A stretch of 36,332 nt of DNA, taken from IMG/VR virus record IMGVR_UViG_2721755676_000006. The stretch is one strand, 5' to 3'. Numbering within the stretch: the stretch's first letter is position 1; the number at the start of each line of letters is the position of its first letter. A program made the translations under genes and the position numbers. Below, piece after piece: positions 3,165-13,424 of this stretch. Source of the stretch: a virus. Its lineage: Duplodnaviria > Heunggongvirae > Uroviricota > Caudoviricetes. The notes under the pieces are model-generated. The model was not told the origin of the DNA. It was given only the letters and a program-made list of their open reading frames with translations, and ran no database searches.

Positions 3165-4265
3165 TCATTCCATTTCGAAATCATCAATCCTCACTTCAAG
3201 CTCCAGACTGGTCGTAAAACCGTTATCCGGGCTGACGGTATGCGTCAGAGTCGTAATGGTCCATTCCGCATCATCTATCGGCTGTTTAAAACCACTGACC
3301 TTCACAGGCATTTCCGTGTAGAGATCTGCCCGCCCTTCTGCCAGTTGTAGCGAAAATGACGCAACGCCGCGTTGCAGGCGTTCCCACTGCATTTTCGCCG
3401 CTCGTTCGGCGTTGCTCCGGTTGGCATAAGTGCGATTAAGTACCAGCACGTTTTCATCCGTACCCACCAGGTAATCGCCCTGCTTCGCTTCTGGCTCTTT
3501 CTTCTGCTTCTTAGTTCTGCGCTTACGCTTCACCGTGGTGCTTTCTTTCTTCGCAGGTTCGCGGGTATGCAACCAGCTGGCAATTACGCCCGTGTAGGCT
3601 CCGCGATCTGCCAGGGTAAATCGGTGACTGTCGCCGTCCTTGCGTGTGATAGTGATCACTGGCAGAGGTTTACCAGTGGCGCTTTTGCCCTGCCCCTGCC
3701 GGATGAATAACAGATTGCCATTTTTCACCGACGCGATGGCACCGTACTGTCGCGCCAGCCGCATCAGAAAACTGCCGTCACTCTCATTAGTCTGGTCTAT
3801 ATGCTCCACGGGCTTATCCGACAGGTCTTTACCCAGTGCCATCTTCAGCTTGTGCCGCGCGGCTATTTCCTTCACCACTTCCCCGACGGTGGTCTTATGC
3901 CACGATTTTTCACGGCGGGTATTCAGCGTTTCCCGAAAATCAGCACTTCGCGCCCGGATAGTCAGGCGGTCCGGTGCGCCAGTGTGTTCAATCTCGTCCA
4001 CCGTGAATGTCCCTTTCGGGAAAAGCGGCTGCCCCTTCCAGCCCAGCGCCAGCGTAATGACCGCACCACGGCGCGGCAGCACGATTTTTCCGTCGGCGTC
4101 GTCCAGCTCCAGATCAAGCTGGTCCGCGTCAAAGCCCCGATTGTCCGTCAACGTCAGACTCATCAGACGGTTATCCAGCACAGTAGTGATATCCCTGCCC
4201 TCAATACTGATGCTGAATGCGGGAGTTTTGTTGCCTTTGTTAAGCAGTTCAGAGCTGAAATTCAC
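3165..4265 (-). CDS. D: tail protein D (late control gene D family); GTG start with GGGAGGG RBS
   Basis: 366-aa ORF with P2 gpD-like blocks (RLMSLTLTDNRGF, WKG, FLMRLARQYGA); position between ogr and U. Confidence 0.85.
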   Translation of the reverse strand: MNFSSELLNKGNKTPAFSISIEGRDITTVLDNRLMSLTLTDNRGFDADQLDLELDDADGKIVLPRRGAVITLALGWKGQPLFPKGTFTVDEIEHTGAPDRLTIRARSADFRETLNTRREKSWHKTTVGEVVKEIAARHKLKMALGKDLSDKPVEHIDQTNESDGSFLMRLARQYGAIASVKNGNLLFIRQGQGKSATGKPLPVITITRKDGDSHRFTLADRGAYTGVIASWLHTREPAKKESTTVKRKRRTKKQKKEPEAKQGDYLVGTDENVLVLNRTYANRSNAERAAKMQWERLQRGVASFSLQLAEGRADLYTEMPVKVSGFKQPIDDAEWTITTLTHTVSPDNGFTTSLELEVRIDDFEME

Positions 4266-4747
4266 GACAGCAGCCCTCCCACCGTTTTACTGATATCACT
4301 TAAGGCAGATGTTGCCGTGTCCTGCAGATTATTCAGTTGCGTACTGAGATCACCGAACATATCGGACAGGGATTCATCCACCCGTTTGAGCGACAGGGTG
4401 AACTCAATCCGGCGCGGCATACCATCGCGGAAAAACTCCGTTTTAGTCTGATTCAGTCCCTCAATCACATACATGCCATAAATCGTGCCGCTGCCTTCAA
4501 TCAGGGGCCATGCTTTCCCCTGTTCTGCCATCTGCTCCAGTGCCAGCAACGACAGCCTGCCGCCTGTTATCTCCGGCATAAGAACACCAGAAAGCGTCAG
4601 CATGTCGTTGTCCGGTCCCAGAAACTGCGTGGACGGACGACGATTTACCCGACTGTTTGCCGCATGTCGCCAGCTGCGTTGATACTGCAGCTCCTGATAC
4701 GGTACGGTGCGCAGCATAAACACGTACAATCCCAGCACCATCATCAT
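4262..4747 (-). CDS. U: tail protein U
   Basis: 161-aa ORF starting MMMVLGLYVF..., P2 gpU-like; stop overlaps D start, start overlaps T stop (ATGA). Confidence 0.85.
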   Translation of the reverse strand: MMMVLGLYVFMLRTVPYQELQYQRSWRHAANSRVNRRPSTQFLGPDNDMLTLSGVLMPEITGGRLSLLALEQMAEQGKAWPLIEGSGTIYGMYVIEGLNQTKTEFFRDGMPRRIEFTLSLKRVDESLSDMFGDLSTQLNNLQDTATSALSDISKTVGGLLS

Positions 4748-7700
4748 GCGTCGTATCCCCCCTGATCGCTGTAGTTACTCCTGGCTTTTGCCTTCAGCCT
4801 GCGTTCACGTTCATCAAGCTGGCGTGCCACCTCCCGCGCAATATCCTGCGCACTTTGTCCTGGCTGCGTCTGGATGATGATCTGCGTCGGTGCCTCAATC
4901 CGGTGAACGGGCGGCACAGCAGCTGCGCGACTCACCATCGCTTCACCGCCTTTCGCGGGAAGTGCCAAAGGATGCAACGGTGGAAGCTCTGCTGGCGCGG
5001 CAGCAACGCCCATCATTCCGGCGACAACCGCAGCCAGTGCAGCGGTATTTCTCCGGCTGGTCACGTTTGCCGGACCGTTGACAATTTCCGGCCCGTTTTC
5101 ACCGACAATGCCGAACTGCCCGCGCGGGATATACCCGCCGCTGTCATACATCCCCGCAAAGCCATATCCCCATGACGGAAAACCACCCGATGGCATTATC
5201 ACTTTACCGTCTGCATTCACCGTCGCAAGTTGCTGACGCGTCACGCTTTCCGGCAGTTTCGCTTTTGCAGCCTCTTTACTGACAATGCCGAGTTTCTCCA
5301 GCAACCAGGAAACGCCGGATTTCAGGGAGTCCAGCGGATGCATGACCATATTCAGCCCTTCCGCCAGTGCCTCTCCGAATCGCCGCCCCATTGCCGCTGC
5401 ACTCTGCAGTTCGGCAGAGGTCGACTTAACGGGCGTCAGCAGATCAGTAAACCAGCCCCACAGCGCCTGTACTTTGTCGCCAATCCACTGAAACACAGGC
5501 TTAAGTGGTTCGAATGCTGCACTGATGGGACCTGCCGCCGCTTTGAATCCTTCCACCACACCAGCGAGAAATGCGGTGATGGGTTGCCAGTATTTCCAGA
5601 CAACCAGCGCCACGCCCGCCAGTGCAGTAACCACAAGACCTATCGGACTGAGCAGAGCACCTAACAGACCAGATATGGCATACAGGGCAACGCGCAGCAT
5701 CGCCAGCGGACCGGATGCCAGTACTCGCAGCACCGCGCCTGCGGCAGCCAGTCCACCGCGTAGTGCTGCCAGTGGATTCATAAACATCACAGCAACAGCA
5801 CGTAAACCGGATAATCCAGACCGCAACAGTGCAACCGGCACACCTGCTACAGTTTTCAGGACATTCCCCGTCAGTGATGCCGTGCGGCGCAAAGACGACA
5901 ACGGCGCAGTAAGTAAACCCGCTGCGTTGCCCGATGAAGCAAGCCCGCGTCGCAGCAGTGCCAGTGGAGTGCCAGCTAACCAGGACAACGCGCTGCTGGT
6001 TCGTGTTACTGCTGCCGTAACGGAAGGTAACGTTTTGATACCCAGCACAGAGAATCCCAGACGGATGACTGCCAGCGGCCCCAGCACTGCAGCCAGCGCC
6101 ACCGCTAAGGTGCCGAGGCCTAGGGTAACCGCAGCCACAACAGCCGCTACTTTCATCAGTGTGCCTGTCAGTTCCGGGTTAGCTTCCACCCAGCGGCGCA
6201 ACGCCCCCGTGATGCTTTTCACCGTGTACAGAATATCCATCAGCGGCTGGCGCAGCGTTTCGCCCAGGCTGCTGAAGGTATTCTGTGCAGTGGTTTTGAC
6301 CAGCAACCACTGCGCAGAAAGTGAATCCTTGTTAATGTCGGATTCTTTCTGCATGGAGCCGAGCGCATCATTGCCCGCTGTCAGTTTTAGCTGGCGCTGT
6401 AGTTCCGGCAGGTTGTTTGCCAGTTTCGCCGCGTCATCGCCAAACTCTTTACCAAACAACATAGTCATGGCAGACAGACGCTTGTCCTGCGGCAGTGCGT
6501 TCACCTTCTCCAGCACACGCTGGATAGTTCCCATCGCATCCTTCGTCATCTGCTTTTCAATCACTTCAGGATTGAGTTTCAGCAGATTCATCCCTTCAAA
6601 GAAACTCTTGCTCTGCATGGTGGCAATGGACAATTCACGCACCATCGCGTTTGCTGCACTGGCTGCAACCTCCGGCGCAGCTCCCAGTGTCAGGAAGGTG
6701 GAACCCAGCGCCGCCGCTTTACGATAATCCAGACGGTCAGCCACACCGCCCAGGCGTTGCATCACATCAATGATGTCCGCCCCTTTCGACATGGCGTTAT
6801 CATCCAGATAGTTCAGCGCATCACCGAGCTGTTCAATATTGCGGGTAGGGATTTTGTAGAGCTGAGCGATTTTCCCCAGACTTTCTGACAGTTCATCCGC
6901 TGGCAGCTCAAAGGCTGTTGCCGCCTTTGCTGCTGTGCTGGCGAAGGCCAGCAGGTCACGTTTCTGGTCTTCCCAGCTGTCGTCAGGGTTTGCGACGTTC
7001 ATGCGCGCCCCACCTTCAACCAGTGCGGCGAAGTCCACCGCACCGTTTTCCATCGGCAGCTGTTCGCTGGCAGCCTTGATGGCATCCTGCATTTCATAAA
7101 AACGTGCAGTACGGTTTCCATTATCGTCACGCAGACCATTGACCTGCTTTGCCACACCTTTCATGGCATCTTCCATGCTGGTATAGCTTTTTACTGCCGC
7201 CATCACTGGCGTCCCCATTGCCAGCCCTGCAGCCGTGGTAGTGGCTCCGGCTCCTGCAATACGATCGCGCACCTCCAGCGAACGGGCATAACTGGCACGC
7301 GCCGCATTCATCCTGCGCTGAGCTTCACCCAGTCGCTTCAGCCGCGCCTCCTGTTTCGACAATTCCTGGTTATAACGTGATGTTTCACGGGCTAAACGGG
7401 CAGTTGCTCCCGCATCATCTTTCGCAGAAATTCCCGCCCGGTACAGTTCTGCACGCACAAGCGCCGTTTGCTTCTGCAAATATTTTTGTTGTTCTTCCAG
7501 GCGTTGGACTGCCAGCGTTTGCCGACCTAAAGCCACAAGGTGCCGTTGTGATGGTTGTTCCATCGCCTCCAGCTCAGAGCTAAGCAAATTAGCCTTCTGT
7601 CTGGCATAGTTCAGCCTGTCGCCTAACTTCTTGTTATCGGCCTGCAGCTTGCGAAATTTTTCCAGGCTGTTACCCGCCTGATTGAGTTGCTTTAATGCGT

Positions 7701-7821
7701 CACGGGAGTTTCTGATTGCGCCAGCCAGCTCTTTCGAACTGGCCTGTGCAGCACGGAATGGGCGGGTGAGTTTGTCAACCGCATTAAGAATGACCTGCAG
7801 CCGCAGGTTATTATTACTCAT
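4744..7821 (-). CDS. T: tail tape measure protein
   Basis: 1025-aa Ala/Leu-rich ORF with coiled-coil N-terminus and Gly/Ala-rich hydrophobic middle; position downstream of E/E'. Confidence 0.9.
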   Translation of the reverse strand: MSNNNLRLQVILNAVDKLTRPFRAAQASSKELAGAIRNSRDALKQLNQAGNSLEKFRKLQADNKKLGDRLNYARQKANLLSSELEAMEQPSQRHLVALGRQTLAVQRLEEQQKYLQKQTALVRAELYRAGISAKDDAGATARLARETSRYNQELSKQEARLKRLGEAQRRMNAARASYARSLEVRDRIAGAGATTTAAGLAMGTPVMAAVKSYTSMEDAMKGVAKQVNGLRDDNGNRTARFYEMQDAIKAASEQLPMENGAVDFAALVEGGARMNVANPDDSWEDQKRDLLAFASTAAKAATAFELPADELSESLGKIAQLYKIPTRNIEQLGDALNYLDDNAMSKGADIIDVMQRLGGVADRLDYRKAAALGSTFLTLGAAPEVAASAANAMVRELSIATMQSKSFFEGMNLLKLNPEVIEKQMTKDAMGTIQRVLEKVNALPQDKRLSAMTMLFGKEFGDDAAKLANNLPELQRQLKLTAGNDALGSMQKESDINKDSLSAQWLLVKTTAQNTFSSLGETLRQPLMDILYTVKSITGALRRWVEANPELTGTLMKVAAVVAAVTLGLGTLAVALAAVLGPLAVIRLGFSVLGIKTLPSVTAAVTRTSSALSWLAGTPLALLRRGLASSGNAAGLLTAPLSSLRRTASLTGNVLKTVAGVPVALLRSGLSGLRAVAVMFMNPLAALRGGLAAAGAVLRVLASGPLAMLRVALYAISGLLGALLSPIGLVVTALAGVALVVWKYWQPITAFLAGVVEGFKAAAGPISAAFEPLKPVFQWIGDKVQALWGWFTDLLTPVKSTSAELQSAAAMGRRFGEALAEGLNMVMHPLDSLKSGVSWLLEKLGIVSKEAAKAKLPESVTRQQLATVNADGKVIMPSGGFPSWGYGFAGMYDSGGYIPRGQFGIVGENGPEIVNGPANVTSRRNTAALAAVVAGMMGVAAAPAELPPLHPLALPAKGGEAMVSRAAAVPPVHRIEAPTQIIIQTQPGQSAQDIAREVARQLDERERRLKAKARSNYSDQGGYDA

Positions 7822-8304: not shown

Positions 8305-8820
8305 TCAGAGGCCGAGGGCGTTGCGGTGCGCTTCCATCAGGTCTACACCGTCCACAATCTCCACCATGTTGATAAGGTCCACTTCATAGAGCACCTCACC
8401 ATTGATGGTCAGCTTCGCGTAGCTGTTGGTACTGGTCACTTTGGTGGTGTTGCTTTCGCCCGTCTTCCACTCGCCGGAATCCACTTCTTTGTGACGTCCA
8501 CGCACCACAAGCTCCACAGCCTGCACTTCCCCGGTATCGTCACGCTGGATAGAGCCGGTAAAGCGCAGCTGGATGCCATCCACCGTGGCTTTGCCCATCT
8601 GCTTAAACAGCAGCAGTTCAGTACCACCAATGGAAAATTCTGTATCCAGTGCACTGTCATCCAGTCCCAGATCCACATCCACCGCCCCCGGCATTCCGCC
8701 ACCGCGATACTTCTCATATTTGCGGGTGAATTTCGGCAGCGTCAGCGACTCAACGATCCCCTGCCAGTTGTTCCCGTCGTTAAACAGGTTCAGGTGTTTT
8801 AATTTGCGTGGTAAAGCCAT
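8305..8820 (-). CDS. FII: major tail tube protein
   Basis: 171-aa ORF, P2 FII-like, immediately downstream of the sheath gene. Confidence 0.88.
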   Translation of the reverse strand: MALPRKLKHLNLFNDGNNWQGIVESLTLPKFTRKYEKYRGGGMPGAVDVDLGLDDSALDTEFSIGGTELLLFKQMGKATVDGIQLRFTGSIQRDDTGEVQAVELVVRGRHKEVDSGEWKTGESNTTKVTSTNSYAKLTINGEVLYEVDLINMVEIVDGVDLMEAHRNALGL

Positions 8821-8829
8821 GTTGTCCCC

Positions 8830-10002
8830 TTACGCGCTGACCTGGCTGGCAAAATTCACCAGGTACTGATCGGTGATGCGCTGGCGCAGCATCAGATTTT
8901 CAAGTGGCGGCACTGGCGTGTAGTCATAGTCGATGGTGAGTTTTCCGGCTTTCAGCGTGTCTTTGTCGTTCACCGACTCATCCAGCCAGCAATCACCACC
9001 AATGAGATAGCCTTGACTGACCAGGCTGCGCATTTTGGCGCGGATACCTTCGATAATGTCGCGGGCCAGCGACGGGTTAAGCGGTTTATCCACCGCCCAC
9101 ATGTGTGCTTCTGCCATCGTGTCCATCAGCACCTGCGCCGTGCGGGTGTAGTTTTCGAAGGCAAAGAGCGGGTCATCACTCAGGCAGCGGGAACCCCAGA
9201 AGCGGAAACCGTCTTTACGCACAAGTGTGGTGACGTCGTTCTGGTTCAGCAGACCTGCATCGGTTGCCGGGTCCTGCAGATCCCAGAACACATCTGCAGA
9301 AATTCCGGTGACACCGTTCACGCCCACGTTGGACAGGCTTTTGTGCCATCCGGTCTGCTCGTCAATTTTGGCGCGCAGACCAAGCGCACGGGCGGTGGCA
9401 TATGCCGTTGCTTCGGCATTCAGCACCGTGTCCCAGCCAGTAAAGTCAGGCCAGATCAGCATCCCTTCGCGCTGGCTGAAGTTTTCACGGTAAGTGATCG
9501 CCTCCTGTACCGTCTTGCAGCCATACGCTGACAGGTAAGCAAATCCACGCAGGCTTTGCGCCACGCTCAGCAACTCAGTAGCTACCGCCTTGGTGTCGTG
9601 GCCTGGCACGCCGAGAATGCGCGGTTTAACGCCGAGCTGAGCCTGTGCAGATAACAGGGCTTTCATACCTGTTTTTTTACCTTCAGCAGTCACTGCGCCG
9701 ATGATATTGGTCGTGGTTTCGTCTTCCGTTTCACCCTGCGGCACACGCACAACAACGGTCACGGGTTTTGCCTGGTCAGCGATGGCATCCAGCGAACGAG
9801 CCAGCGTGCCTGACTCACCCGCTTTACCGCTGGCAGTCAGCACATCAGTGATCAGCACGGGTTTATTAAGAGGAAACATTTTTGCATCGGCATCATCGCC
9901 CGTGCAGACCATACCCACGATGGCGGTGCTCACCGTGGTAATGGATCGGGTGCCTTCGTTGACTTCAACAACGCGCACCCCGTGGTGGTAATCCTGAGCC
10001 AT
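8830..10002 (-). CDS. FI: contractile tail sheath protein
   Basis: 390-aa ORF, P2 FI-like; ATG at 10002 preceded by AGGAGG. Confidence 0.9.
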
Positions 10003-10077
10003 AGTGGCGAACCTCCTGATTGGATTAGGCTTCGCCCTATGTTGAAGTGATTGTGCCTGACAAACAGCTAAGCGCAG

Positions 10078-10097
10078 TTGTACCGTTATTCACACAA
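10078..10097. promoter_or_regulatory. candidate Ogr-dependent late promoter element (TTGT-N12-ACAA dyad) for the FI-FII-E-T-U-D operon
   Basis: TTGTACCGTTATTCACACAA read directly, about 80 bp upstream of the FI start; the same dyad recurs upstream of V and O. Confidence 0.4.
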
Positions 10098-10144
10098 AAT
10101 GACGGTATTTGTCTGCTTGCAGGGATAATCAAAATTATGCTGAT

Positions 10145-10711
10145 TCAGGGGGATTCATTGCTCTTATTTGCCGGAAATTTTCTATAAATGGTAGAAACGC
10201 CTACATCAAAAATCAGTGCAATACGCTGTCTTGATTCTCCGGCCTCGAGTAAACGTCCAATCTGTGCCCACTGTTCAGTGGTCAACTTAGGACGGCGTCC
10301 ACCTACTCTGCCTTTGGCACGAGCTGCAGCCAGCCCTGCCCTGGTACGTTCAACTATCAGTTCGCGTTCCATTTCAGCCAGGGCCCCCATGACATGAAAA
10401 AAGAAACGGCCCATTGGGGTGCTGGTATCAATACTGTCAGTCAGGCTTCGGAAATTCACGCCACGCTGACGCAACTCTTCTATCAGCGTAACAAGATGCC
10501 GCATACTGCGCCCCAACCTGTCTAGCTTCCAGACAACCAGCGTGTCTCCTGCCGATAGTGTCCTGAGCAGTTTTTTCAGCCCCGGTCTGTCGGACTTAGT
10601 GCCACTGATTTTATCCTCAAAAATCCGCTCACATCCCGCGCAGTTCAGTGCATTACGTTGCAAATCGGTGTTCTGGTCATTTGTTGACACGCGTACATAG
10701 CCAATAAGCAT
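10145..10711 (-). CDS. serine DNA invertase (Hin/Gin/Pin/Cin family)
   Basis: 188-aa ORF with N-terminal resolvase catalytic motif (YVRVSTNDQ), C-terminal HTH (GVSTIYRKF); adjacent to the tail-fibre genes. Confidence 0.9.
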   Translation of the reverse strand: MLIGYVRVSTNDQNTDLQRNALNCAGCERIFEDKISGTKSDRPGLKKLLRTLSAGDTLVVWKLDRLGRSMRHLVTLIEELRQRGVNFRSLTDSIDTSTPMGRFFFHVMGALAEMERELIVERTRAGLAAARAKGRVGGRRPKLTTEQWAQIGRLLEAGESRQRIALIFDVGVSTIYRKFPANKSNESP

Positions 10712-10766
10712 GATTATCCCCCTGACTAAAAACCGGGGATGATGCCAGTTAGCTGTTACCTCTGCA

Positions 10767-10792
10767 TTTTCTTAAACGTTGGTTTGGGAGAA
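10767..10792. repeat. invertase crossover site B (26 bp, two 12-bp half-sites around a 2-bp core)
   Basis: TTTTCTTAAACG-TT-GGTTTGGGAGAA; the 14 bp 10779-10792 are an exact inverted copy of 12363-12376. Confidence 0.7.
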
Positions 10793-11122
10793 GCCAGATA
10801 TATCATTCAGCGAGGAGCTAATGCCAATGGTGCATGGATTCGCTGGTCAGATGGTGCAATAGAAGTCTTTGGAACGGGTGGGTCTAATGATAATGGACTG
10901 GCTAAAGTCGTTTACCCAATTGCACTGCCTAAACTTTCACGTTTTATCAGTATCGCGGAAAGAATAAGAACAGATTACGAGAGCACACCTAATAATGTTC
11001 ACGTTTCAATGATCGTGGATGATCAGGTAACAAATACCGGTTTTTATGCCCGCTGCCAGATGTACGACGGCAGACCATCATCAAATGCTTTTTCCTGGAG
11101 GGTTTATTGTGCGCCTGTTTAA
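10781..11122 (+). CDS. alternative tail-fibre C-terminal exon (no own start; fused in-frame to the H N-terminus after inversion)
   Basis: Reading frame runs in-frame through site B (..VGLGEARYI..) for about 109 codons to TAA at 11120-11122; the H frame across site A reads ..TYLGLGEG.. Confidence 0.6.
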   Translation, partial: GLGEARYIIQRGANANGAWIRWSDGAIEVFGTGGSNDNGLAKVVYPIALPKLSRFISIAERIRTDYESTPNNVHVSMIVDDQVTNTGFYARCQMYDGRPSSNAFSWRVYCAPV

Positions 11123-11306
11123 TCCAGTTACTTTGACTGAAGTAATCCCCGGTCTTCATGATGTGACCGGGGCTATTGAATTACCGGAGGACAACTGGTT
11201 TTTTACTATGACAGAAATTCCTCAGGGCATGGAGCTAACAATTAATGAGAAAGGGGAACCAATATTGATTGAGGTTAATCAGTCTCAGGGAAAGCAGGCC
11301 AAATAA
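11109..11306 (+). CDS. short alternative tail-fibre assembly protein candidate (tfa', about 65 aa, GTG start)
   Basis: GTG at 11109 preceded by GGAGG; overlaps the end of the alternative exon by 14 nt and the 3' end of minus-strand tfa by 32 nt; unusually short. Confidence 0.35.
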   Translation: MRLFNPVTLTEVIPGLHDVTGAIELPEDNWFFTMTEIPQGMELTINEKGEPILIEVNQSQGKQAK

Positions 11307-11880
11307 TATCAGGCGCGGTGCTGGTATCTGTTGCCGTCACCGCGTCAATGTAATCCAGCACGGCGTTAAGCCGGGTTGTTTCTGCCTGCATCAGCTTCCG
11401 TCCGGCCTGTAATTTCAGCTGAATCAGACTGATGGAAGCCATTGCAGCATCAATCAGTGACTGACGCTGTGCTTCTGCCGTGTCTACTGCGGCGCTATGC
11501 TGTGCCTCAGTATCGGTCACCCATTTCTCACCATCCCATTTATCGTATGGTGTTAACGGGGCGATAGTTGTGGTATTTTCAGGGTAATCACCCGGAGCTG
11601 TGATTTCTTTTGACTCTCCCGTTTTGGTGCTATAGACGATTTCACCGCGATGGTCTGGCACATATTCCCATGAGTTAAAATTTGCAGAACGACAGATAGC
11701 ATAACCCACCTTATATGTGCCAGGGGCATCTAAACAGGAATATGCAGGAATACCGACACCAATGGCAAGATATTCAGTTGAAGCTGAAATATATTCCTGC
11801 GTCTCACTATCATAGTTATAAACGGTAATATCCCCCGACTTTGTAGCAATAAGCTCACTATTTAATATTGCTTTATCCAT
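11275..11880 (-). CDS. G: tail-fibre assembly protein (Tfa, P2 gpG / lambda Tfa family)
   Basis: 201-aa ORF ending ..DTSTAPDIIWPAFPETD, the conserved Tfa C-terminal signature; start overlaps H stop (TAATG). Confidence 0.85.
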   Translation of the reverse strand: MDKAILNSELIATKSGDITVYNYDSETQEYISASTEYLAIGVGIPAYSCLDAPGTYKVGYAICRSANFNSWEYVPDHRGEIVYSTKTGESKEITAPGDYPENTTTIAPLTPYDKWDGEKWVTDTEAQHSAAVDTAEAQRQSLIDAAMASISLIQLKLQAGRKLMQAETTRLNAVLDYIDAVTATDTSTAPDIIWPAFPETD

Positions 11881-13424
11881 TATGCTGCTCTCACGATATA
11901 GTTAAATGCAATGTTTCGAGGGCGATTCTCTGATGCTGTTGGTACAACCCTGGATGCATCAAAACTGAATCCTGTGTAAGGGGTATTTTTTGTTTCATAT
12001 GTGCCTAGGTTATTATAGATATTTCGCGTAGCTTGAGATGCTAAGGCAAAAGCACCAGTACCAGTCTGTAACCTGAAAGTTGCTGAATCAATGGTGCCTT
12101 TAACTTCATTTATAAAGCCTGTTATATTCCGAATGGTATCTCCCTGTGACGAAAGCAAGCTACGGTTAGTATCAATCCCTCTTCCATCATCCCAGCCACG
12201 AATAAACTCACCGCGTAAATCAGGCAATTTATTTGTCGGGTAAACCTTTGCCAGTTCCGGGTATTCTTCAGCAGAAAAAGCCGCCCCGTTGCATTTCAGC
12301 CAGCCTGTTGGCGGAGTGGCGGAAGGCCACGGAACAGGCACGCCAACGGGTAATGCCGAACCTTCTCCCAAACCAAGGTATGTGAGAAGACCAGCTACAT
12401 CCTTTCCACTCAAATTAGTCAGCGTATTGTCCAGCGGTTGTTTACCTGCCAGCGCATTAAGCATTGTCGTGGCAAAGTTCGGATCATTCCCCAGTGCCGC
12501 CGCCAGTTCGTTCAGTGTATCCAGTGCCGCAGGTGCAGAACCCACCATTCCTGCAATCGCCGATTTCACAAAAGCCGTAGTGGCAATCTGTGTATTATTG
12601 ACCGACTGCGCCGCCGTAGGGGCTGTTGGCGTTCCGGTGAGTGCCGGACTCGACAGCGGCGCTTTCAGTGCCAGCGCATTGTTAATGGTGGTACTGAATT
12701 TCGGATCATTGTTAATGGCTACGGCTATTTCTTTCAGCGTGTCCAGCGTGGCTGGCGCACCATTAATAAGAGCCGTCAGTGCCGCCTGAACAAATGCGGT
12801 GGTCGCAAGCTGCGTGGTATTATTCCCCGCCGCTGGCGTTGGCGCTTTGGGGGTTCCGGTAAACGTTGGACTTTCTTTGGGTGCATACTGTGAATGCGGG
12901 TCCGGCGCGGCAAGATGTTTTGCCATCAGGTCATCCACGTACACCTTCAGCTCCAGTGCCTTGTCATCCACATACTTGCGGGTTGCCAGCACTACAGCAG
13001 GGTCGATTTTCAGGGTGATATTGTCCGTGCTGCTGGTAATCAGCACCATGCGCACGGTCTGGGTACGCCCGCTGCCTTCAGCCAGTTGCGGCTTATAGCT
13101 TTCCGGGCAGTTGCCCACGGCAATCAATGCCCCGGACTCATCAAACAGGCCCACTTCACGTATCCACCAACCGCCCTCGTTTTCAGGGATCACCTGTTCG
13201 GCAATAATCTGGCTGCTGTTCTGCGGGTCGATATAGAGCATATTCAGCGCAGCCCGGCGTTTCTCATTTACCAATGCTGTCTGCTTTGCGTCCGGCGTTG
13301 GCAATGTTCCGCCGCCATCGCCGACCGCCATATGGGTAATTTTTAAAGGCACACCGAGCGCGGCGGCGCTGGCAAGTTTCGCCGCGCCAATATCCGTCAG
13401 CAGGGTATAAAATTTTGTGCTCAT
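11880..13424 (-). CDS. H: tail fibre protein (current orientation)
   Basis: 514-aa ORF with conserved N-terminal attachment region and variable C-terminus; crossover site A lies at about codon 350. Confidence 0.9.
   Translation of the reverse strand: MSTKFYTLLTDIGAAKLASAAALGVPLKITHMAVGDGGGTLPTPDAKQTALVNEKRRAALNMLYIDPQNSSQIIAEQVIPENEGGWWIREVGLFDESGALIAVGNCPESYKPQLAEGSGRTQTVRMVLITSSTDNITLKIDPAVVLATRKYVDDKALELKVYVDDLMAKHLAAPDPHSQYAPKESPTFTGTPKAPTPAAGNNTTQLATTAFVQAALTALINGAPATLDTLKEIAVAINNDPKFSTTINNALALKAPLSSPALTGTPTAPTAAQSVNNTQIATTAFVKSAIAGMVGSAPAALDTLNELAAALGNDPNFATTMLNALAGKQPLDNTLTNLSGKDVAGLLTYLGLGEGSALPVGVPVPWPSATPPTGWLKCNGAAFSAEEYPELAKVYPTNKLPDLRGEFIRGWDDGRGIDTNRSLLSSQGDTIRNITGFINEVKGTIDSATFRLQTGTGAFALASQATRNIYNNLGTYETKNTPYTGFSFDASRVVPTASENRPRNIAFNYIVRAA
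12363..12388. repeat. invertase crossover site A inside gene H
   Basis: TTCTCCCAAACC-AA-GGTATGTGAGAA, an imperfect palindrome; first 14 bp identical to the reverse complement of site B. Confidence 0.7.

Follow-up and report, generated by a model that had tools for sequence, protein, structure and literature searches.

A Predicted N-Domain-Only Tfa Protein in the Alternative Cassette of an Invertible Tail-Fibre Segment

Introduction

What is encoded by an open reading frame of only 65 codons that stands directly after a silent tail-fibre tip, opposite a tail-fibre chaperone gene of full size? The question is raised by an invertible segment in a P2-like prophage. An initial annotation, made from the sequence alone, had offered three readings of the short frame: a minimal chaperone, a degraded remnant that makes the alternative fibre non-functional, or evidence of past recombination inside the segment.

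Tail-fibre chaperones limit the swapping of fibre tips in phage and tailocin engineering, and the current model places the essential activity of Tfa in its conserved C-terminal domain. Members of the Tfa/Caudo_TAP family (PF02413), such as lambda Tfa, P2 gpG, and Mu U (TfaMu), are encoded immediately 3′ of the fibre gene and in the same orientation, an arrangement that the small ORF shares. According to the summary of North et al. 2019 in PMC9608196, Tfa consists of two modules, a variable N domain for binding to the distal fibre and a conserved, helical C-terminal domain through which it trimerises.

The Invertible Tail-Fibre Switch

In the window, which is the whole stretch of 36,332 nucleotides that was analysed, the minus strand encodes the late genes of a prophage that is P2-like (Peduoviridae-type). 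The relevant features of the window are the following.

4744-7821, minus strand: tape measure gene
8305-8820, minus strand: tube gene
8830-10002, minus strand: sheath gene
10145-10711, minus strand: Hin/Gin/Pin/Cin-type serine DNA invertase (Resolvase, E 2.2e-53; HTH_7, E 1.4e-15)
10767-10793: left crossover site, 27 nt, core TT at 10779-10780 (inverted-repeat search)
10781-11122, plus strand: alternative fibre-tip exon, currently silent (phrog_2557, E 3.4e-15; weakly Gp53-like_C)
11275-11880, minus strand: tfa, 201 aa, N plus conserved C domain, currently expressed (Caudo_TAP, 6.6e-31; phrog_105, 1.7e-95)
11880-13424, minus strand: tail-fibre gene H, at present 514 aa (Phage_tail_fib, E 3.2e-65; Collar, E 4e-14)
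12362-12388: right crossover site, 27 nt, within H, core AA at 12375-12376 (inverted-repeat search)

The constant part of H comprises residues 1-354, and the variable tip is encoded within the invertible segment. When 10779-12376 is inverted in silico, residues 1-354 of H are joined in frame to a 109-aa alternative tip, giving a fibre of 463 aa that is directly followed by the small ORF. The window holds a two-state tail-fibre switch of the Hin/Gin/Pin/Cin type. The alternative tip scores 17.5 bits against Gp53-like_C (PF21882), which is below the gathering cut-off of 24.9 (E 0.006). Further crossover half-sites that would join the small ORF to a C-domain were not found above background in the window, and a promoter and terminator scan of 10000-12500 gave results at the level of the shuffle background.

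Invertible segments of this kind are known from the G segment of Mu (S/U, S′/U′), the C segment of P1, the P segment of e14, the Min system of p15B, and the Hin-type system of Salmonella. The window resembles them in having a serine invertase beside the segment, inverted sites of 26-27 bp of which one lies in the fibre gene, two convergent cassettes of tip and chaperone, and both orientations represented in natural genomes. Unlike them, it has one cassette with what appears to be a minimal N-domain-only partner in place of a full Tfa, and no spacer separates its two chaperone genes, which share 32 nt.

The Small Open Reading Frame

The features of the small ORF are given below.

11097-11101, plus strand: ribosome-binding site GGAGG (from the sequence; GGAG is conserved 5′ of the start in homologous loci)
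11109-11306, plus strand: small ORF, 65 aa, stand-alone Tfa N-domain homologue (from sequence, profiles, and alignment)
11109-11273, plus strand: conserved core, codons 1-55 (from alignment A1, dN/dS, and the match to 131-aa Caudo_TAP proteins)
11274-11306, plus strand: unconserved 10-residue tail and stop (from the alignment; antisense of the 3′ end of tfa)

The protein of 65 aa (VRLFNPVTLTEV...GKQAK) is read directly from a GTG start (11109-11111) to a TAA stop (11304-11306), with 7 nt between the ribosome-binding site and the GTG, and the 3′ end of the frame overlaps the convergent 201-aa tfa by 32 nt (11275-11306). In these respects the initial annotation was accurate, as it was in assigning the Tfa signature to the active 201-aa protein (Caudo_TAP, E 6.6e-31). 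An 86-aa version starting at ATG 11046 was considered and rejected as an N-terminal over-extension, since the ATG of the homologues falls at the GTG position; the 73- and 86-aa database entries of the family are upstream start over-calls of the same sort. Most homologues, diverse as they are, have an ATG exactly at the position of the GTG of the window and a GGAG before it.

The upstream end of the ORF is interlocked with the alternative tip, as the stop of the fibre exon (ending at 11122) falls 14 nt inside the small ORF. The same 14-nt overlap of stop and start is present in the window and in the nine homologous loci that have a fibre-tip frame, L008 being the exception. The GGAGG is embedded in the W-R codons of the conserved C-terminal SWR motif of the tip (...FSWRVY.AP.). 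Because this Shine-Dalgarno sequence is formed by codons of the fibre tip, the end of the tip is constrained at the level of both the protein and the translation signal.

Directly 3′ of the stop of the small ORF, and inside the convergent tfa coding sequence, there is a hairpin with a 14-bp stem (11312-11346). The 121-nt stretch that contains this hairpin folds only marginally better than its shuffles (z = -2.1), and it is not followed by a T-run.

Relationship to the N-Terminal Half of Tfa

The protein has no match in Pfam at E values up to 1, and a scan of NCBIfam returned only noise. It is a direct sequence member of phrog_5400, a family of unknown function (E 1.5e-25), where it covers positions 1-66 of a profile of 145 positions that appears to include long forms with N and C domains. 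A tblastn search against phage genomes found gene_1 of Cronobacter phage JK004 (5e-5). This gene encodes 128 aa, of which the first 56 residues are homologous to the small ORF, and they are followed by a Tfa C-terminus (...EEEAAALTEWKLYRILLMRVDIANPVWPIIPN).

An exhaustive profile search with the small-ORF family against 1.84 billion (1.84e9) cluster representatives gave 41 matches, which are either stand-alone proteins of 53-70 aa or longer ones (103-180 aa) in which the domain occupies residues 1-57. Among the long forms, residues 1-58 of P0132 are matched by the profile with E 2.5e-12, and P0141 and P0155 are also matched. Long proteins with this domain at residues 1-58 have 125-135 aa and carry canonical C-terminal modules: Caudo_TAP is recognised in P0132 (3e-20), P0141 (7e-28), P0155 (2e-20), and JK004 gene_1 (1e-20); Phage_tail_APC passes the cut-off in P0143 (E 1.3e-9) and lies below it in P0144 and P0135; P0154 carries a DUF4376 module. 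Alignment by hhalign of the short family (A1) with four long Caudo_TAP proteins (A2) gave a probability of 99.3% and E 4.7e-20 over residues 1-59, and the core of the small ORF aligns to residues 1-59 of 131-aa Caudo_TAP proteins.

The match to the Tfa families is confined to the N-terminal half, both in the profile search and with hhalign. The conserved helical C-terminal domain of Tfa (...W.xY...VD....WP..P) is absent from the protein, which ends 10 residues after the N domain, and the plus-strand frames downstream of the small ORF are antisense of tfa and encode nothing like a Tfa C-domain. The initial annotation had reckoned with an ORF of no Tfa similarity at all; instead, the product of the frame has homology to the N-terminal domain found in genuine members of Caudo_TAP. 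Its residues 1-55 are homologous to the fibre-binding N-terminal domain of the family, and it lacks the family-defining C-terminal domain, the presumed driver of oligomerisation. Its size is about one third to one half of that usual for Tfa. Given the modular organisation of Tfa described in the literature and the homology to residues 1-59, the small ORF corresponds to the N module alone. As judged by sequence comparison, it is a Tfa N-domain-only protein and an intact member of a stand-alone family of about 57 aa.

Conservation and Selection

A search of 5.8 billion proteins found 123 protein clusters of small-ORF homologues, nearly all of them 57-66 aa long. Their hosts belong to Escherichia, Enterobacter, Salmonella, Citrobacter, Hafnia, Pseudescherichia, Xenorhabdus, and Erwinia, and genome scanning added Intestinirhabdus, Trabulsiella, and Pantoea. 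In alignment A1, invariant or nearly invariant positions are found all along residues 1-53, and the sequences cannot be aligned past residue 55 or so. The consensus of the core (residues 1-55) is MRLFNPxTxTEVIPGxHDxxGAIELPxDNWFF..EIPxGK.LxVNxxGEPxL, and core identity between genera is 61-70%.

Selection was estimated by the Nei-Gojobori method on core codons 2-55 of ten loci. The values of pN are 0.02-0.32, as compared to 0.39-0.9 for pS; omega is 0.03-0.04 in the least saturated pairs and about 0.1-0.2 in the others, in which synonymous sites are saturated. The core of the small ORF is under purifying selection, with a dN/dS of about 0.03-0.2. Overlap with other genes is limited to 14 nt at the start and 32 nt at the end, so that the constraint seen in the core belongs to the frame of the small ORF itself. 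The ORF is real, and not a chance frame of 65 codons, because it has homologues in 123 clusters, a dN/dS well below 1, and profile matches. That homologues of about 65 aa could be full-length and functional had been allowed for by the initial annotation; with regard to length this has been confirmed, and the function we infer.

Short Forms outside Invertible Segments and the Tip-Plus-Partner Cassette

Short forms of the family also occur where no switch is present. In a P2-like prophage, the 57-aa protein P0125 is encoded by the only gene between a P2-type fibre of 527 aa and the convergent gpU and tape-measure genes, the gene order being V-W-J-I-H(527 aa)-[57 aa], then gpU and tape measure. 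This locus has no invertase nearby, and its gpG slot holds no further chaperone gene. The stop of P0125 is followed at once by AAAAAAGGGAGCC-AGGC-GGCTCCCTTT, a hairpin plus T typical of a bidirectional terminator. P0126 (60 aa) follows a fibre of 214 aa and precedes convergent lysis genes in several phage contigs of 25-75 kb, and comparable short forms outside invertible segments are P0130 and P0156. The latter has 70 aa and belongs to a sub-clade of MWYWNP type, in which JK004 gene_1 is one of the long forms. At least two sub-clades, those of MRLFNP and MWYWNP type, thus contain both short and long versions.

In the locus L016, the strong bidirectional terminator (4175-4205) lies directly 3′ of the 57-aa homologue in this non-invertible P2-like prophage, whose tail operon past the fibre module is inverted relative to the canonical gene order of P2.

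Every short-form gene examined is preceded by a homologous tip (35% identity, 1e-16; 32% identity, 4e-15). The shared tip and the 14-nt overlap indicate that the inherited unit is a cassette of tip plus mini-partner. In a phage collection of 50,697 records, tblastn found no cultured, plaque-forming phage with a short form apart from the partial genome of Escherichia phage S164, and a search of the literature for short chaperones in P2-like invertible segments found nothing.

In JK004, three of the four fibre-tip-like cassettes are seen without a chaperone gene after them, which implies that a partner may not be strictly required. The JK004 locus (L005) was also noted for its own organisation. 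Between 2878 and 5168 it has six direct copies of a crossover-like site, AACGTTCGTTTRGGCGAAGC, which resembles the left site of the window. Four of them directly precede tip-like ORFs of about 110-120 aa on one strand (3248-3601, 3640-3999, 4412-4750, and 4784-5116), and only one cassette has its own Tfa. Inverted copies of the site are absent from the 3.4 kb inspected. The array may be a multi-cassette system for switching fibre tips.

The Junction with tfa and the Unconserved Tail

Five loci, namely the window, L004, L006, L007, and L009, share one junction: the stop codon of the convergent tfa starts exactly 2 nt past codon 55 of the small ORF. These loci come from different genera, and their convergent Tfas differ in sequence and in length (124-201 aa). 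The loci from Xenorhabdus and Pantoea have a spacer of 26-87 nt, often with a hairpin, and there the small protein ends after 57-61 residues. Because loci with a spacer end in this way, the tail of the E. coli protein, VNQSQGKQAK, represents read-through into antisense tfa. The spacer between the convergent chaperone genes would have been lost, with the frame then running into antisense tfa until it met a stop, and the last 10 or so residues of the small protein would have no conserved role.

On the sequence evidence, the identical junction in five loci argues for a single old event, and the opposing cassette was probably exchanged later through the conserved region coding for the Tfa C-domain. 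Past recombination inside the segment, as proposed by the initial annotation, is thus retained only as an ancient and family-wide event; as a local lesion it is contradicted by the same junction at five loci. A convergent overlap is moreover not special to the small ORF, as phage 500465-1 has two full-length tfa genes with an overlap of 29 nt. The tip of that phage and its alternative-cassette Tfa (147 aa) were considered as relatives and set aside, as they have no similarity and represent a different cassette.

Both Orientations in Natural Genomes

Of 5426 complete E. coli genomes, 114 contain the 531-bp cassette of tip plus small ORF, and all three of the E. coli genomes inspected have the alternative orientation. 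In E. coli DSM 103246 and WAT, a prophage of the same type carries the segment inverted with respect to the window, with a 463-aa fibre, a 65-aa gene, and an intact invertase; the flanks of L023 and L024 are opposite to the segment, relative to the window. In E. coli ESBLEC_MG48 (L002), the alternative tip is fused to the fibre gene and the 65-aa gene is in the expressed position. The invertase of this strain is a frameshifted fragment (L002 4634-4838) and, since it is broken beside a fused alternative tip, the copy is probably locked in the alternative state.

In E. coli ECOR29, the invertase and the whole segment are found with 95% identity in an e14-like element, the cassette being 100% identical. 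This match indicates that the switch moves as a module between unrelated prophage types. The region of 95% identity joins L001 2484-4600 to window 10262-12379 and comprises most of the invertase and the entire segment; the similarity stops at the crossover site inside the fibre gene, and the e14-like element carries pinE, ymfQ, and baseplate J.

Segment-sized contigs are the expected output of an assembler where a culture holds both orientations. The homologous loci often make up an entire contig of 1.2-1.7 kb, a size close to that of the segment (L006, L007, L012, L014, and many others), which suggests assembly breaks at the inverted repeats and mixed orientations in the sequenced populations. 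The alternative orientation need not be treated as defective.

Structure Prediction

AlphaFold2 (AF2) predicts an all-beta structure of four strands for the 65-aa protein, with a moderate pLDDT of 71.5 that falls below 50 at residues 61-65. A search with this model (pLDDT 71.5) gave no significant structural neighbour, and sequence-profile searches of the PDB gave no match with the small ORF or with the alternative tip exon. The reference folds for the N domain are TfaMu (PDB 5YVQ) and the beta-sandwich of Pam3 gp25. In the account of the cyanophage Pam3 given in PMC9608196, the tail-fibre chaperone gp25 contacts the fibre tip through an N-terminal beta domain, and the model of the small ORF is also all-beta. 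Pam3 gp25, according to the same account, trimerises through a C-terminal helical bundle, whereas the small ORF lacks such a bundle.

Proposed Role and Alternative Explanations

We consider it probable that the small protein serves the alternative tip as its cognate, translationally coupled partner and binds to it, in other words that it is a Tfa without its oligomerisation domain. The homology, domain architecture, conservation, cassette linkage, and double orientation established here provide the frame within which tip binding, chaperone activity, and translational coupling would operate. In the present orientation, the cassette of tip and small ORF is silent. After the invertase flips 10779-12376, the constant part of H would be fused to the alternative tip, and the small gene would be co-transcribed and co-translated with it. 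Translational coupling is implied by the fibre stop lying 14 nt inside the small ORF and by the location of the ribosome-binding site in the last conserved motif of the tip: ribosomes ending at 11122 would re-initiate at 11109. The small protein would then bind the nascent fibre at its C-terminal tip, with one copy to each chain, and either help it to fold or stay as a cap, with no trimerisation domain of its own. If the oligomerisation module is dispensable, one possibility is that the small tip might trimerise by itself.

Among the readings of the initial annotation, the minimal chaperone is favoured, as about 57-65 aa is the norm of the family, the core is selected, and the gene is elsewhere the sole occupant of the gpG slot; the role is a putative one. 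By contrast, the short frame would be a degraded remnant if a full-length alternative tfa had lost its C-domain, leaving an alternative fibre that is non-functional or dependent on luck. Such a loss would account for the missing Caudo_TAP C-terminal signature, for the existence of long relatives with a C-domain, and for a tail made of unconserved read-through. However, the ORF is intact and of the same length, which is the norm of the family, in at least 8 genera, its core is under purifying selection (dN/dS 0.03-0.2), short forms with their own terminator are the only gpG-slot gene in non-invertible phages, and the cassette persists in 114 of 5426 E. coli genomes, with the alternative orientation in the three inspected. 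Degradation was thus not borne out and appears very improbable. The same holds for a recent local scar, in which the start of one tfa would have been fused to the end of the opposing one in this segment. The convergent stop exactly 2 nt past the conserved core, with no spacer, is suggestive of such a fusion, but the identical junction recurs in five loci of different genera with convergent Tfas of 124-201 aa, the cassette occurs at 97-100% identity in dozens of E. coli genomes as well as in an e14-like element, and relatives with a spacer or a terminator end at the same protein length; a scar of this kind is scarcely to be expected. That the ORF is spurious and untranslated, its conservation resulting from the fibre and tfa genes that overlap it, is a thought invited by its small size, its GTG start, and the overlaps at both ends. 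It is close to excluded by a core of about 150 nt that is free of any other conserved frame and under strong frame-specific constraint, by ATG and GGAG at the homologous position elsewhere, and by the occurrence of the domain fused to chaperone C-domains.

Another possibility is repurposing, with the mini-protein serving as a permanent cap or co-adhesin of the tip. It would then be a subunit of the tip retained in the virion, and not a folding chaperone, which shields the tip or aids receptor recognition. This would agree with the retention of the tip-binding module and the loss of the module for assembly and oligomerisation, and with the tight co-variation of the protein with one family of tips. 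There is precedent in Tfa proteins that stay on the fibre and bind host surfaces, as stated in PMC10579305 with reference to North and Davidson 2021; TfaMu and the "chaperone caps" of Alteromonas phages are described there as staying on the fibre, and the small protein may likewise sit at the distal tip. Against this, the core is 61-70% identical between genera, and proteins that contact receptors usually diversify faster. A retained subunit is also compatible with a chaperone role and does not exclude it. As the sole role of the protein, we regard it as unlikely, although deserving of more weight than a remnant, a scar, or a spurious frame, and the tip-binding partner remains the preferred reading.

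Conclusions

The switch itself is ordinary, and the novelty lies in the N-domain-only architecture of a protein whose kind is well known. In annotation, the label Tfa N-domain-only can be given to some 120 clusters now called "hypothetical protein" (phrog_5400, for which Pfam and NCBIfam have no model). If the pair is functional, it would represent a compact (about 500 bp) and portable cassette of tip plus helper. A family of N-domain-only proteins that is paired with one type of tip also offers a simple test case for the N domain alone. More tentatively, and with a likelihood that we place slightly short of even, tip-binding N-domain-only chaperones may constitute a natural and recurrent class, with at least two clades that each have long and short forms. 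If this is true, the conserved C-terminal oligomerisation domain of Tfa would be dispensable for small, weakly Gp53-like fibre tips.
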